In this document: piece by piece, positions 40,595-64,000 of the stretch
Numbering within the stretch: the first letter of the stretch is position 1
Layout: each line of letters begins with the position of its first letter
Assembly (NCBI GenBank): GCA_965113315.1
Contig: OZ220374.1
Source: Podarcis vaucheri
Taxonomy: Eukaryota
DNA length: 64,000 nt
Direction: 5' to 3' (one strand)
Notes under the pieces: generated by a model
Databases searched by the model: none
Seen by the model: only the letters and a program-made list of their open reading frames with translations
What the model was told of the DNA's origin: nothing
Made by a program: the position numbers and the translations under genes

Positions 40595-40992
40595 CATGCA
40601 ACTATTGAAATATTATTTTTCCCATGCACTGTGATTGGCAGCTATGTAATTGTGGTAAGCTGCTTTGACCAAGGTTTCTATGGCAACCACCCTACAGTCA
40701 ATTCTTACCTGTTTTCTGGTCATCCATTGTACTGAGCTTAGTCTCGTCAGCTACTGTTAAAAGGTAAATGTATAACGGTTAGCCCTGTTAGTGCCCACAT
40801 CCCACATGCATCCACTGTTTATATTCTCTTTAAAGTTAGAGGTCACTGGAAACATCATTCTTCATGCACATAAGCAATGTTATGCAGACTATCTCGATGG
40901 CACAAAATAACGCCCGACAACAAACCTAGTAACCATCATGCGTTATGTCAGTCATTTCCATGTCACAGCCAAAAACAATGTTATTCACATGC
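40595..40992 (-). promoter_or_regulatory. Splicing-regulatory cluster around the 45-nt exon (RBFOX UGCAUG x4, GCAUG x2, QKI/branch-point ACUAAC..CUAAC)
   Basis: Plus-strand catgca at 40595, 40623, 40805 and 40863; catgc at 40937 and 40988; gttagt at 40787-40792 with a second gttag at about 40778-40782. Confidence 0.7.
40709..40753 (-). CDS. PARD3: PARD3 45-nt symmetric (phase 1-1) small exon: (V)ADETKLSTMDDQKT(G)
   Basis: Matches mammalian ADETKLNTVDDQKAG as recalled. Acceptor ...ttttaacag (40755-40754); donor CAG|GTAAGA (40708). Confidence 0.93.
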
Positions 40993-44138: not shown

Positions 44139-44318
<180 letters not shown>

Positions 44319-54464: not shown

Positions 54465-56087
54465 TATGAATCCATAAATATAAGGGAATAATATAAAAAT
54501 GAAATTAAAACAACAGTGACAATGTAAACTTAAAAAATGTACTGTGTATTTTGGGTCTATGGACCGCAATAAAATTGTGTGTGTGTGTGTTTGTGTGTGT
54601 AAATAAAAATACAGATCTCTCCCTGCACCCCTCACGTCACCATAATCAGTTGCTCTAATAAATACACTGGGAAATTGATTCAAAAATGCCCTAGAGAAGC
54701 TTAGTCTTTCAGATTGGCCACAAAGAAGGAAATTTGTATTTTTAAAACTTGCCAGGCCTTAATAAACTCAAGCACTTTTAAGAAGCGTCTTCTCCATTTG
54801 GCTTGTTGCTAATGAATACATTCCATGTGAGAAAGTGATTAAGAAACACTGAATTCATCCACAGAAAACTAATGGCACATTTCATATGGCTTTAAGAAGG
54901 AATGAAGGTTAGCCCATATCCCTGCTGCCTTTACCCCATGGGAGGAGACAGGATAAGCAAAAGGGAAACATGGCAGTATTAAAATCCAAAATAAGATCTT
55001 GCACTTTGGCTTCTTGTTTATTTGCTTGAAGTCATATATGCATGTGATTCAGACTGCAGGAATGAAGCCTGCAAATATGTAAGTGGGAAGAGCTCACTTA
55101 CACTTCTTGTGCATACTAACCATTTAATCTATTTAACCTTCATACCAGTGGGACTCCTATGGCACTTCAATTTGAAAAGGGAATTCATTTTCTAAAGTTA
55201 AACAATGAAATTAGAAATAGATACACCACTGCTGTGGGCACTCAAAAAAGGATTTCCAAAATCAATCTATGGATGCCCATAACAACTCTGTCAATGCATG
55301 AAAAATGACATTTTAACATCTATGTTTCAGTTTCAGAGCTGCAGATGAATCTACCAATAAATGTATTTCAACATGGCAGGCTTTACATGTTTTTAAACGT
55401 TTTGAAATGGTTTAAAATCTGAATAAACTAAATCTCAGTCTGAGCTTCTTGGAAAACCCAGCCAATCCTGTGACAAAGTAAGTCTTTATTAACTGAATCT
55501 GGTGGGGGGGTGGGATGACTTGCTACAGAGCAAGTACTAATAACCTCATTATCCACTGGGGGCCCTGAAGAGAGTTGACTACTGAATTCAAACAAAGGAT
55601 GCATAAAATTAAACCTAGGGCATGTAAAGCAGAAAAGCAAAAAGGTCCCCAAACAAACGTCATACTAAGCACAAATTGGATAAGGTTCACATGAGCTTAT
55701 CTGGTTTCTGTGCGGGAACTTAAATAGGAGGTAAAATCAATGCGGAAACTTAACTGATACATCCTTAATCATAACATTCATTGACTTTACATTTAATGAA
55801 GCTGCACTAGCCAGGCCCTCATAGACTGGCATAAAGCATGTCTCTCCACCTCAGACAGAGTAAAACATTTTAAAATGTTCCTGTGGCTGCCACCTGCTCT
55901 GTGATCCGAGACTTATTATATCAATTTATTGACTCGCATTAAGAAGCCTGTATGTCGAACTTGGGAGAAAGGGGAAAGGCATAAATTGGTCACTATAATT
56001 TTCAAGCTCCATGCTATCCACATACATAATGCATCAACCACCTCTTTGTAAACCTAAGAAAAATAGATGATCCCCAAGACATAATTA

Positions 56088-56330
<243 letters not shown>

Positions 56331-57384
56331 CTAGGCCTGGTCCTGGCTGGGCCCCAAATGAGCTAGAACTCTTCACCCTGGACCACAATAATTTGCAATG
56401 ACAGTGTTGCTTAATGACCAACTTTCTGTGCCACTTCACACTGTACCTCCTATGGAGCCTTGTCAGACTCCATCCCTTTTCAGCAGGAAACATGCAAAGA
56501 CAAAGCACCATGTTTTGGTTTATCTGTACTGCACATATCCTTGAGCAAGCAAGCAACCTCGTATGTTTCAAAATTATCTGGCAGATGGCCTGGACCTCTT
56601 TCGCAGACTGACAGCTTGTCAGGACAGGAACCATCAGAGTAGTTGTGGAGAGGTGCAGAAACAAAATAAAAAAGGATTTAACAAAAAAACAAAACTCCAT
56701 TTGGTATGTGATTTCTAACCACATTCTAAAATTGGAACCATTTGCTTTCGTATGCAGTCATTACACAGTTTCCCCAACCCCACTCAACCCAGAAAGCCCA
56801 AAGCCATAAATATGAACATACACAAATAAATAACCTGCATATTTAGAACTGAACTCTGATCTGGAATTAACATTATTTTTGCACAGATTGCAATTAGGAA
56901 CATCGCTTGCATTTGGTGGTAGCGGGGAGACAGGTTCTGCATATGCACTCAAGTGCTTCTGACCCTAAGGGTAAGAGGCTTCATCTTTTCAGGGTTTAGG
57001 CAAAATCTCATCAGCTTCACTACACATGAATTTTGTCCCACTTTTTCAAACCCCCTGCAGGCACAGTAGTGGCTTTCAAAGGCCCTTGCACCCAGCAGGG
57101 TGCCACAAATCAGCATGCTATGAAGAGTCAGAAGTTGTAAGAAGGAGAGAGATATTTATGCTTGGTATCATGTAGCAAAAGGAAGGCGATAAAGTGGCTT
57201 CTCCCTCTGTTTTTTCCCTTTTCGGCTGCCTACATATGCCACACACAAAGGGCCAGTGCAGAGGTAAGATTTTAGATCTCTTAACCAATATTTTAATTCT
57301 AACTCATTTGTACTACTTGGTGACACAATGCAAGCTATCCATTAACCATTGCAAATGTGGACCTGGCCAGTGTTATTTATGTTT

Positions 57385-57499
57385 AGTGCTATCTTTCTAG
57401 GGAAAAAAGGTGCCAGAATTCACCCTTGTTCTCTTATAATGGCACCTGAGAGATGCCTGAACTGAGTTCCAGTGAGTTCTGGCTGGAAAAAAAGCCCTG
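57385..57499. mobile_element. Short non-autonomous DNA element (hAT-like)
   Basis: agtgctatctttctag..aaggtgccagaattcacc ... gaactgagttccagtgagttctggctggaaaaaaagccctg, with subterminal ggtgcc/ggcacc inverted motifs. Confidence 0.5.
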
Positions 57500-59481
57500 G
57501 ATATGCTCAATGTGGGGCTACTCTTACAAAGCATCCAGAAACCTTGCTTCAAAATGCTGGCACCAAATTTTTTTCTGGGAATAGAACATATTGCCCTGGT
57601 TTTGACTATTACTCTGGCCCTTAGTAATTGTAATTGGCTACCTGTTCATTTTCATGCTCGATTCATGGTGCTGGTTCTTACCTTTAAAGTCCTGAGAATT
57701 TTGGGATCTATTTACTTGAAGGACCACATCTTCCTTGAACCCAATCAACATAGGAAGCTACCTTGCCCCAATAGCTACCTACTGCCAGGCAGCGGCTCTC
57801 CAAAGTTACAGGAAGGAAATGGTGGAGATTAAACCCAGGACTCTCTGCAAATAATGGGCTCTACTGACAGCCCTTAAAGATCCCGCTTGGGTTCCCCCAC
57901 TGACTGAGATATGCCACATAAGGAATGGATCCTTCTCAGTTGTGGCAGCCACACTGTGGAATGTCTGACTGGGCCCTTCTTTATTTTCATGCTCCTACCT
58001 CTATAAGACCTTCTTGTTTGAGGAATCCCTAAGGGGAAGCTGCCTGGGTTGTTCTTCCTAGCTCCCACTTGCTGCTATGACAGGAGCGGGGAAAGGGGGA
58101 AGGCACCTTCTTCCAAAGTGTTTTTGGAGCTGCTCTCTTTGATCTGTTTTAGTGGTACTTCACTGACATCTTGATCATTTGTCTGTTGTAAGCAATTTTT
58201 ATCTACTATTAGATGCTTTGATTCAGTTTTTCTCTGGAAAAGGAATTTTAGCAAGCATTCTTAACTCACAATGTTTCACCACATACTTAAGGGTATTAAA
58301 TACAGATTAATTATCCCTCCTCAAGATCCTCTATTCACCTAAACAGCCACGGGTGGTAAAATCAAGATGGTCGGTTCCCACTATTTCTATGCATGCTAAT
58401 AGATAAAGTTGGGATTCTAATCCGCTTCAGTGAGTGAGACTGGACTCAAGGGGTAGCAACTTCTAATTAATGTGAACTACAAAGGTCTGACCTTGTGCAT
58501 GTGGTATTTACAGGATAGATCTCTGCAATCGACCCAAAGGCATTGTGCCATGTTATTTAGGGGATCCCATAGTACCAGTATGATGGATACAGGAGGGATT
58601 TGTAAAACTTGCAGTACTTCAAAGTGGGTGAAGCATAATCAGAGGAGAGACTGTATAAAGTATTATTTCTGTTCAAAGCTATCGTCTTTTTAATATAAAT
58701 GAGATATTTAATGAAGTTCTGAATTGTAGCCTTATCTTTCCCAGTTTGATCAGCACTAGGGAGATTTACTGCATAGAAGGGTCAACACAATTACCATTGG
58801 AGGCACGTCAGGCTGCAGGAGAATAATAAACTTGCCATGCAAGTGAATTAGGCTCAATAAGGTTTAAATTGTGAATCGAGGATTTGTTTTATTCAGGTTC
58901 CCCCCTCCTAAAATTGCAGATTACTACTGACAGTTCCACTGAAAAGTAAATTAAACAATATGCAAAGCCTCTGATGTAAAGGAATCAAAGGCAAATTTAA
59001 GAAGAATAAAAATGTTAAAATTCTGAAATGCTATTAAAAAGGAAAGAGAAAGAGATACTATCCAGGGACTGAAAGTTGCATGCCAAGTGTATTCGCACAA
59101 ATGAACTGTACTTTGTTTTAACTTTCTTCAAACAAAGGGTGAAAATTACCCTAAATGACTAACATGACTTACCGTATTTTCCCAGGGAGATAGGACTGTA
59201 TCTTCAAGTTTATATAACAAATGTCTAGTTCTTTATTGAACCACATAATATAACCATTTCTCAAGGGACAATGCATATCTAAACACTATCGAGCTCTGAG
59301 TAGATTTCCCCCCTCTATTCTTTTCAAAAAGAGGCACAGAGAAAGAGGCAGCTTCGGAACCTAGGGAGAGGAACAGGCATTCGCTCCAGGTGAACTGGTA
59401 AGCAGCAGCTTACAGAGAGGGGTAAACAACAGCACTGTTGCTTAATGGCTGCACTCTGAAAAGAGTGCTGGCATGTCTTAC

Positions 59482-59601
59482 CACTTTCATGGGAAAAAGA
59501 CTTTATTCAGTGACAAATTAGCATATCAAAAGCCAGATTTAAATCAAGACATCAACAGTCAGCCACGCAAATATTTAACTAAAGATACAATGCCTTTTAT
59601 A
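59482..59601 (-). promoter_or_regulatory. Candidate internal promoter and alternative first exon of PARD3 (TATAAAAG ... ATG AAA GTG|GTAAGA)
   Basis: Minus strand shows TATAAAAG (59601-59594), ATG at 59490-59488 and a strong phase-0 donor at 59481, compatible with the phase-0 exon at 56258. Motif-level evidence only. Confidence 0.4.
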
Positions 59602-61406
59602 AACTTGCAAAAAAACAACAACAACCCAACAAAAGTTTTTTTGTAAAAGGGGAGGAGAAGATTCCACAAAAAGCCCTTTTAAAAACACTTTTGTTGGTTC
59701 TTCTGCAAGAAGGTTTGCATAAAGAAAATGTGTCAAAGCAAGGGCGAGTTTTGCTGACAGGAAGAGAACAGAAAGGGGTGGGAATGGTGCAGAACCAAGG
59801 TCTATTCTGTCATTTATCTCAGCCTTTGCCCAAGCACTGGCTGGGACTGATGGGAGTTGTAGTCCAGAACATGTGGGAGAGCCCAGGCTGCTTTATCTAC
59901 TATGACAACTTTATGCCTGGGCCTCAGACCATCAGACCTTACTTTGTGTTCACAGTGGTTAATGGCATGAGCTATGAGTCCAATGTCTCCAGTTCAAATC
60001 TCAGCACACTGAAGAACCATCTCACCTTTCCACACACCTCCGAAACATGATGATAATGATGTTACAGATTTGAGTTTAGGGGTGCAAGGGCACCCGTAAC
60101 TGCTAGAATTAGTGAATGTTAGATATTAGTAAGGTGGTGGGAGCCATTGAAGGGAAGATGCAAGGCACTGCAAAAAATACAGGCTAAGCTCTCTTTCCAG
60201 GCCAGGACAGAAGAAGCTGTTCAGCATGTCAAAAAGCGTTGATGGCCCATCACAGGGAAATCCTTGGGACTGTGTCAAAGGAGGTTGCCAATGTTATGCT
60301 GAGAGATGGCATAGGTTACAGGAAAATGGTCATCTTTTAAAACTAGGCTTGGAATAGCAGGTAGGAGCGGGGTGAACAGACAGAAGGGGGGAGTTGCCTG
60401 GCAAGGGGGTTCTGGGAAAGAAAAGCAGGAAATAGGTAGAACTCCATGCAGGGGCTGAAGGGCAGACCATCTTGGTGGGCTAGCTGAAGGCAGGCTGGGA
60501 CAGAGACACAGAGATGTACAGTAGTGGAATCCAAAGCTGCACTGCTGTGAGGAACAAGCCCCTTTTGAGATGTGAATGCTATAAACTGTGCAGTTCCTGC
60601 ATTGAAAGCTTCTGGTGCAAATATGTGTGGGATAAACCATATTTATTAAGTACTTGATTCCCAACAGACACATAACCCTGGAATCTTGCTACTGCTTGGC
60701 AGAGACTGGGTATGGTGGGCAACTTTTGTAACAATATATTTAAATCGAATCTTGCATGGATTATTGCAAGTATTACTGAGATATGTATGAAAACATTGGC
60801 TTCATGTTATTTATCTACCCCGGCATCGTATGTGGTGGATAGCTGCTCATGATGGGAAAGAATCTCTCAGGCAAGGCAAGGCTCCAGCCTAAGCAACCAT
60901 CTCTCCAAACACCCATGACACAACTTCCTCTACTAGTGAGGACATCTGCTTCAAGTAGGACAGACTTCCCTGTTAGTCAAGGCTTATGCATGCTAATTAC
61001 AAACCGAGGGACTAGCTTGGGCAGGAAGGGAGGGGATGGGGACAAGGTGATCTAGTGGCTCCTGAACTTTGCTTTGAGGTCTGTTTCATGTAGCAGAGAC
61101 AAACGGGGCTGCGGAATATACACCATCTCCTGAAATGTTCCCTGTTCCCCATGCAGACAGAAATGTTGAGATGGGAGAACATGAGAAGAGTCTTGCCCAA
61201 GGAGTCAGACCAAAGGCCCATCTAGTCCACCAGCCAGTGATTACCCACCTGCTTAACCCTAGCATCATTCCAGACAGCCCTCTTGGGATTTTAAAGATAC
61301 TTCCAAACAACAACCTTCAGTGCTCAACTTTTAATTGAATTTATAAAAATTTTATGGCACTTTTAAGCATGCACTCCTTCCTTACAGTCCATAAGGACTG
61401 TACAGT

Positions 61407-61458
61407 TGTTAGCCGCCCTGAGCCCGGCTTCGGCTGGGGAGGGCGGGATATAAATAAA

Positions 61459-61505
<47 letters not shown>

Positions 61506-61506
61506 G
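61407..61506 (+). mobile_element. Very short, young LINE (L2-type) 3' terminus with (TTA)n tail
   Basis: gttagccgccctgagcccggcttcggctggggagggcgggatataaataaaat followed by about 14 TTA units; CpGs intact. Confidence 0.7.
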
Positions 61507-64000
61507 TTATTCAGCAGTTATTTTCTTAATGTCATACATGTGTCTACAGTCAAAACAGGTGGGGGTTGGGCTGAGTTAAAATAAAAAAGGGTGTCCATTG
61601 TTCCCTAATCTCTTCCAAGAATAGAAGGACATCTGGCAAAAAAACAAAAGTTTATCACAGCGTCACTCTTAGTCGCTGGTCAGAAGCTGTAATGTTATTG
61701 CACAAATCAGTTATGAGCAGGAAAGCAGCCCATACGAAAACAGGCACTTTTGTCCTTATGCAGACAGAGCCATGTTTTAAATAAGAAATGGGACTTTGCC
61801 ACATGGTCCTTCATCATCTAGATAAGAACAAGCTGCTCGATAAATACTAGGTACTTGATAAATACTACCTGCTCTAACCAGAACCTGTTCAGTCCTTATC
61901 TAACAAATGATAAAGGGACAGTTAAATGACCACTGGCATTTCAACAATATAATTGCCAGGTGGTGTATTAATAAAGTAGGGGGGAAAGACCATCTAAAAA
62001 AAGTGATGCCAAAACAGTACGTGGTAACATTAAGTTTTCCTCCCATCATTATTTTAATTGTCATCTGTCTAGGGTTGTCATGAAGGTAGGTAATGAACGT
62101 TGGGAAGCAGGGAATGTTTGGTTTTGGAGGATTTGGAACAGACACTCAAAAACCGAAGAGAAAGAGAAGCAGGTTTGCCAAATTTGAAGACCCTGTACCC
62201 TTTCACAAGAAGCATGGCCATACGCACGCACACATGCGAGCGCACAAACACACACGCACACACAAATTACCCTTTAATTAAACTTTTTTACTGTTTCACT
62301 CAAATAATTGTAAATAAAAAATAAAAAAAAATTCAGGTCAACTGAAGTAGAGCCCAGTCTTTCAGTGGCCACTGAGGTCTAAAATACGATGCCAGCGAAA
62401 GGCTTGTACTGCTCTTAAAAACCTTTTTTTTAAAAGAAGAAGTCTGGCAATTTAGGAGTATTTAAAATGAATACAATCTCTGTGGCCAAATATGCTAAGA
62501 GTCACATTTTACCTTCTTTTTTATTACAAGACAATGTATAAAACTCCAATTTAAATCCCAGAACACATTAGTCTGAAGTACTATCATTATTCTAACAGCC
62601 AAAGAAAAAAGTGGCCTCTGGGTTAAAAACAGAAAAGGGAATTTTTCAACTTATTACCAGCTACAATGATTTCTCCAATCAAAATTCCACCTCCAGCAAC
62701 ACCTCTCTGAACATCCCTCATGATTCAAATGTAGACTTACAAAGTTATAAATCTTTGGAATCGGATGTAGAAAACAATTATGAGGGTGAACAAGTTGAAC
62801 ATAACCTTTCACATTGTGTTATAGCTGTGATGCCTTGATAAGCTTCCCAACCAATACTGTTTTCCAGCCCTAACACAAACCAGTGACATGCTGAACAGCA
62901 GAGGTAGCCATTTCAACAACAGAGATCTGGGGGATTTATGCAACCACTTCTGAAAGAGAAACATATTTTAATTTTCCCAGACAAAAGCTTGGAGAAAAGC
63001 AAGGCAGACATTGTCTATCCCCTAATATTAAGCTCTAACAGAAGGCAGCTTGTGCAGTGATACACAAGGCTATTTCTCAATGTGCTTAACTCTGCTACAC
63101 ATTTTATTTATAGGCCCTGAGACTTTCTGGCGTCTACCTTGTTTGCCTGGGCCAAAGTTCAACACACTTGTTTAAAACATGCTTTATTGAGGCCATGCAC
63201 TGGAATAAGTGGAAGCTGAGCAACAACCTGCCAGCTACATGTTTTCTAGAGTATGTGACATTAAATCTGTATTTATGCTTATTTTCCTGAGCACTAACAG
63301 TACAAAAGTGTATATGCATAAGTTTTTATCCTGAGGGTGTACAATAATGCAAACACACACACCAGGTTCTGAATTTTGGCTTTGCCTGGATTGCACCCAG
63401 TCTTAACAAGAAAGTGCCAGATTCAGGGTTTTGCAGTGCCAGAGCATTTAATTATATGTATGCAAATGTATGTATATGCACTTTATCTATGCTTCTTTGC
63501 CCCAGAGATCCTAGGGGCAGACCCAGTTGAAACTTGAAAGCTGGACAGCACCTAGTGAAACATAATGTAAAGAAGTCTGCTAGTTCCTTCCATGCTACAA
63601 CTAAAGACTGTGACTCCATGGCTTAAGATCCAGCCTGATTAATAGTTCTGGAGAACTCAAAAGCTTTTTTCCCTGTTCTGCACCATTTGGTTGGTCCAAA
63701 TGGTATTGGTAGGGTGTGGAATTTGGATTTTCCCTCATAAACCAACAACTTCATCTGCTTTTTATAACTACACATGCCTTTATATAATGTTTTTTACTCA
63801 GTGTTTACCAAGGAGCCTATTTGGAGTACATGTCAGTTGCATGGAAAAGCAAAAACACAGTTCTGCTCAAAAAAACGATGGTTGAAAAAGTTCTCAAGAA
63901 TACAGGATGGCGTTACAGCCTTGATATCTTGCACTTCTTCAAATTTTCTGATGCATTTTCAACTCAATGTATCAAATAAATGGGATGTATCAAAATAGGT

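Follow-up and report, generated by a model that had tools for sequence, protein, structure and literature searches.

A candidate internal TATA promoter and three-codon first exon in a lacertid PARD3 intron: frame, frequency and rival readings

Within the 64,000-nucleotide stretch of Podarcis vaucheri DNA analysed here (the window), one intron of PARD3 holds a TATA box, a short coding stretch opening with ATG and a splice donor in close succession, and the question that this locus raises is whether the gene has an internal promoter that would give rise to a Par3 protein without its PDZ domains. The reading that we prefer, with a probability of about 60%, is that the motifs of this block, all of them short, have come together by chance in an AT-rich lacertid PARD3 intron. 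Transcripts would then probably splice past the block, from the PDZ3 exon (which lies outside the window) to the exon with its acceptor at 56258, yielding the ordinary PDZ-containing protein, and the TATA box and donor would not be used to any meaningful degree. Indirect tests lean against use of the site: the predicted protein start is absent from the 173 distinct proteins retrieved (in the main search, the best 120 of 1888 matches), the core motif set is common, and the same donor suits a pseudo-exon with a stop just as well. Here, we will describe the gene context and the motifs, and then weigh the chance reading against a real first exon, an intronic enhancer and a cryptic cassette exon.

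The gene is PARD3 (Par3): seven exons on the minus strand, each bounded by AG and GT and matched to protein, encode Par3 sequence including CR3 (56258-56108, 48962-48773, 44298-44150, 40753-40709, 33673-33446, 26853-26637 and 2910-2809). The first of these (56108..56258; 151 nt, LESPG...SRIMG, phase-0 acceptor) is the coding exon next after PDZ3; its first residue is number 690 in the full-length protein, past the Par3 N-terminal domain (residues 1-83) and the three PDZ stretches, all of which are found in the P. raffonei isoform X2 (P0012). The exon at 44150..44298 carries CR3 with its aPKC phosphorylation motif and matches the Par3 peptides 4dc2_Z and 5li1_B. No canonical upstream (PDZ3) exon was found between 56259 and 64000, and the intron before the 56258 exon is therefore longer than 7.7 kb. 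Among the other exons, the 45-nt one at 40709-40753 (minus strand) is a cassette with tandem acceptors at 40753 and 40750, both in frame, which is present in the Podarcis muralis isoform X1 (P0009) and absent from P0012. A 23.7-kb intron (2911-26636, minus strand) comes after the exon ending in GLGDMFR, the point from which a number of short isoforms in mammals take a different end.

A first-pass annotation had read the block, on the minus strand, as a TATA promoter followed by a first exon encoding M-K-V, and the elements that this reading needs are in place. The consensus TATA box TATAAAAG is exact (59601-59594, minus strand; one of 43 TATAWAWR matches on that strand), stands 119 bp before the donor and predicts a transcription start near 59572-59568. 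The run of ATG AAA GTG and then GTAAGA is found at 59490-59476 on the same strand, comprising the candidate coding exon (59482..59490), whose ATG has the weak context TTTCCC[ATG]A, and the candidate donor (59476..59481), and a core promoter element and a donor are thus set out in a plausible first-exon arrangement. The donor had been called strong; its position and its phase 0 hold, but it is of middling strength, scoring 4.1 bits on a frequency matrix, with four of the six real donors scored (the CR3-exon donor was left out) ranking higher, and the 7.7 kb of intron that are visible hold ten GTRAG sites, this one included.

The frame logic is right. With its phase of 0, the acceptor at 56258 fits the donor at 59482, and a splice from 59482 to 56258 stays in frame through all seven downstream exons in the window, giving 348-363 codons without a stop. 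After its three-residue leader, the joined chain is identical to P0009 at 360 of 360 residues and to P0012 at 345 of 345. The domain consequence that had been drawn, loss of CR1 and the PDZs with retention of CR3, follows correctly from this splice, as the CR3 exon lies downstream. The two short upstream ORFs named as a caveat are also there, one reading M-S-stop (59544..59552, minus strand; context CTGTTG[ATG]T) and the other MLICH-stop (59507..59524, minus strand), which has a purine at -3 and a better context than the candidate main ATG. An AATAAA hexamer (59502..59507, minus strand) is located 12 nt before that ATG. The canonical protein does begin with MKV, as had been pointed out (MKVTVCF), but the likeness ends after three residues, the genomic frame continuing VRHAS where the canonical one has TVCFG, and we rejected this echo as support.

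In liver promoters, one expects activator sites to precede the TATA box. The motif GTTAAATATTTGC, described as HNF1/FOXA-like, is found where it was placed (59567..59579, minus strand) and is of FOXA type, but its HNF1 match is weak, differing from the consensus at three positions (63 sites in the window come this close or closer), and it overlaps the predicted start instead of lying before the TATA box. The C/EBP-type site TTGCATAA (59715..59722, plus strand) is present as reported, about 115 bp upstream of the TATA box, whereas the forkhead-type site GTAAACAA (59422..59429, plus strand), also present, lies 3' of the donor, within the would-be first intron. With repeats judged within the window, the block is, as claimed, without recognisable ones: it contains no tandem repeat, and the nearest window-repeated fragment is at 59843-59879. 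The CpG observed/expected ratio of 0.09 marks no island and is neutral for a TATA promoter, and an Rfam search over 55000-64000 gave three matches, all far below the gathering score and none in the block. The segment 59400-59760 (minus strand) has a predicted fold with z -2.72, and none of 100 shuffles was as stable; its MFE and centroid structures differ widely, and the fold was set aside as evidence.

How often would such a set arise by chance? At a spacing of 60-200 bp, a strict TATA box combined with an ATG in frame and a donor that equals or exceeds the candidate in strength was found at 2 of 39 sense donors (the candidate and one other) and at 2 of 49 antisense donors, and local shuffles (n=200, same spacing) held a mean of 0.50 core sets, 39.5% of them containing at least one. 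When the spacing was 50-400 bp, the counts were 6 of 41 sense donors (one being the donor of a real exon) and 4 of 49 antisense donors, with a mean of 0.83 in 100 shuffles. On these counts, the claim based on the core of TATA box, ATG and donor falls within chance. The weak context of the ATG, the two ATGs upstream of it and the factor motif lying over the predicted start site point further in this direction. Points against the chance reading are the fit of the donor phase and the full cluster: the core set with at least two FOXA-type and at least one C/EBP-type sites occurs in the window at the candidate alone (1 of 39 sense and 0 of 49 antisense donors) and in 1% of 200 shuffles, figures to be read with the FOXA and C/EBP criteria being post hoc, fitted to the candidate site, and with the shuffles undercounting real composites about fourfold. 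The candidate is also the only set of TATA box, ATG and donor in the visible part of its intron.

The same factor sites could have another role, in which FOXA and C/EBP factors bind the block as an intronic enhancer of the usual PARD3 promoter, the TATA box, ATG and donor being incidental. We consider this quite unlikely, even though the sites lie around the putative exon and partly over it, and even though few TATA boxes (3 of 79) are accompanied by at least two FOXA-type sites and one C/EBP-type site, this PARD3 intron having two of them (59601 and 63112); the motifs are short and common, with 188 FOXA-type and 17 C/EBP-type sites in the window. The second of these TATA boxes, at about 63112 (minus strand), has its FOXA- and C/EBP-type sites without an ATG-plus-donor set.

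Were the block instead a real first exon, a tissue-restricted (endoderm-like) TATA promoter would start transcription near 59570, and an exon of about 90 nt would be spliced to 56258. Leaky scanning or reinitiation past the two upstream ORFs would then give a PARD3 protein without CR1 and the PDZs, with a predicted length of 646-661 aa and, judged from this length, a mass of about 73 kDa. Such a first exon is unlikely in our estimation. The open frame, the retained CR3 and the uniqueness of the full motif cluster (and its rarity in shuffles) are in its favour, and the commonness of the core composite and the weak ATG context count against it, as do the annotated proteins. These were retrieved by three homolog searches and one representative search, which scored the 56258 exon only and so cover proteins that include it. 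Across all 173 proteins, Podarcis and Zootoca isoforms included, none begins with MK-x-LESPG, and the isoform was thus not found in the RNA-guided annotation of relatives as far as these searches reach (the main one through its best 120 of 1888 matches). Those 120, from the class of 89-2000 aa, are without exception spliced to the PDZ3 exon. In the class of 236-753 aa, which includes the length of the predicted isoform, none of the 28 matches (from 35 candidates) has this start, and 25 have PDZ3 sequence upstream, as does P0143 when judged by eye. From the class of 30-203 aa all 12 matches were taken, and 19 cluster representatives were added. Where a shorter isoform lies entirely within a longer one, the two are kept as separate entries (four of four pairs, and a fifth in which the shorter form lies almost entirely within the longer), and clustering should therefore not have hidden an annotated form of the candidate.

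Some support for a first exon comes from P0127 and P0135 (clusters of three members each, counted by their representatives), which start at the 56258 exon and have no PDZ hit. Two models place short ATG leaders on this exon, ML- in song sparrow and MSWQA- in gecko, neither of them MKV; P0152 and P0135, the proteins with these short leaders, were rejected as orthologues of the candidate, their leaders being different and the models apparently fragmentary. Annotation misses tissue-restricted or lineage-specific first exons. The absence from these proteins argues against a conserved, well-expressed isoform and would be compatible with one that is lacertid-specific or restricted to a tissue. For the orthologous intron DNA, pattern searches gave no confirmed locus among 593 and 336 metagenome matches and 600 genome matches. 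A search of sequencing runs gave 24, none recorded as RNA, with shares of 0.03-0.20 in contig runs guessed to be RNA and of 0.68-0.99 in six unlabelled runs, and these shares count neither for nor against expression.

Known Par3 and aPKC variants give a measure of what such a product would be. Par3 splice isoforms of 180, 150 and 100 kDa have been described, with the N-terminus and all three PDZs common to them and the 100 kDa form without the aPKC site (PMC12302271, which cites Gao et al. 2002). Like the candidate, they stem from the same gene and differ in the binding regions kept, but the candidate would be the reverse of this set, with CR3 kept and CR1 and the PDZs lost. Shortened PARD3 models, namely P0101 (Elephas, X18), P0121 (Octodon, X12), P0129 (Pan, isoform 3) and P0020 (Alligator, isoform B), resemble the candidate in being without the canonical CR1 N-terminus; unlike it, each has at least one PDZ hit and reaches the 56258 exon from PDZ3, and none of them starts at the post-PDZ3 exon. 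An internal promoter is the source of PKM-zeta. The nearest analogy is provided by PKM-zeta together with aPKC-zeta III, N-terminally truncated aPKC-zeta forms that have been detected as protein (PMC13385426). Like the candidate product, which is predicted from DNA motifs, these polarity proteins do without an N-terminal interaction domain, but they belong to another gene. Whether the aPKC-zeta III mRNA originates from a promoter or from splicing is stated to be unknown (PMC13385426).

The first-pass annotation had proposed that a PDZ-less isoform could sequester or relocalise aPKC, and the sequestering mechanism is contested. CR3 and the aPKC kinase domain are reported to form a tight inhibitory complex (PMC4998004), and the ability of CR3 to inhibit aPKC favours a functional first exon. 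In assays of purified Drosophila proteins with ATP present, no contribution of CR3 to the binding energy could be detected; this energy was supplied by the basic region, PDZ2 and PDZ3 (PMC9352551), which speaks against such an exon. Because the binding energy lies outside CR3 in the latter account, a PDZ-less form would more probably serve as an aPKC substrate that competes without clustering, or as a C-terminal scaffold, than as a stable aPKC sink or sponge. If the isoform were real, this dispute could be tested in vivo: CR3 alone may inhibit aPKC (PMC4998004), or CR3 may be only a transient substrate whose binding depends on PDZ2/3 (PMC9352551). The isoform would also be a natural Par3 without PDZs and CR1, a kind that did not turn up in the protein searches, and would show how a conserved polarity gene can gain an internal promoter at a late date. 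A further count against a first exon is that no internal PARD3 promoter or PDZ-less isoform was found among the papers listed in the literature searches, which cover few subscription papers.

The candidate donor can also be paired with a strong acceptor at 59753, and the two enclose a 272-nt pseudo-exon (59482..59753, minus strand) with a premature stop after six codons, as in a poison or cryptic cassette exon. A small share of transcripts might include this cassette after the PDZ3 exon and before 56258. Its stop would then lead to nonsense-mediated decay or, together with the AATAAA at 59507, to a shortened transcript that encodes CR1 and PDZ1-3 only; we hold this to be distinctly unlikely. 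Pyrimidines occupy 14 of 15 positions at its acceptor, as many as at the real 56258 acceptor, and the visible intron has three acceptors of this quality. Among the 39 sense donors, just two, 59482 and the real donor 56108, have an acceptor of this kind within 50-300 nt (0 of 49 antisense donors), and PARD3 models that end one exon later (about 740 aa, ending in SRIMGT) are annotated in several mammals. Such a pair is, however, present in 38.5% of shuffles, AATAAA occurs nine times in the visible intron, and among the proteins for which the junction was printed none runs from PDZ3 into the cassette frame. By the acceptor-donor and shuffle counts, the support for a poison or terminal exon roughly equals that for a first exon, and both exceed chance by little at most. 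One could also imagine that lacertids evolved an endoderm-type TATA promoter in the post-PDZ3 intron, giving an undescribed Par3 of about 650 aa that lacks oligomerisation and PDZ domains and consists of CR3 and the C-terminal scaffold only, and that the 59753 acceptor makes a hybrid exon, first in one tissue and poison elsewhere; this, too, seems unlikely.

A chance cluster remains our preferred reading of the block, and a better supported regulatory lead than the candidate first exon is found nearer to the 56258 acceptor. Directly upstream of it, translated alignments revealed a conserved intronic block (56259..56480, minus strand): ORFs of bird-like (P0146, P0147 and P0153) and mammal-like (P0148, P0149 and P0151) genomic contigs, assigned to these taxa from their sequence, read through the intron before the 56258 exon and match the block at 64-76% over 25-38 residues and at 60% over 57. 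The frames of these alignments shift, so the block is probably non-coding. The intron after the 56258 exon aligns poorly to the bird- and mammal-like contigs. When 56259-56480 was folded, the polypyrimidine tract came to lie in a predicted stem (z -1.94; 5 of 200 shuffles reached this stability). The alignments point to a non-coding block conserved across amniotes beside the acceptor, which is a candidate splicing regulator or enhancer. At the other end of the same exon, past its donor (56097-56108, minus strand), the lizard reads MGKSS where the bird- and mammal-like contigs read MGES, and the ESG-extended form of the 56258 exon, known from mammals, may have been lost in the lizard.
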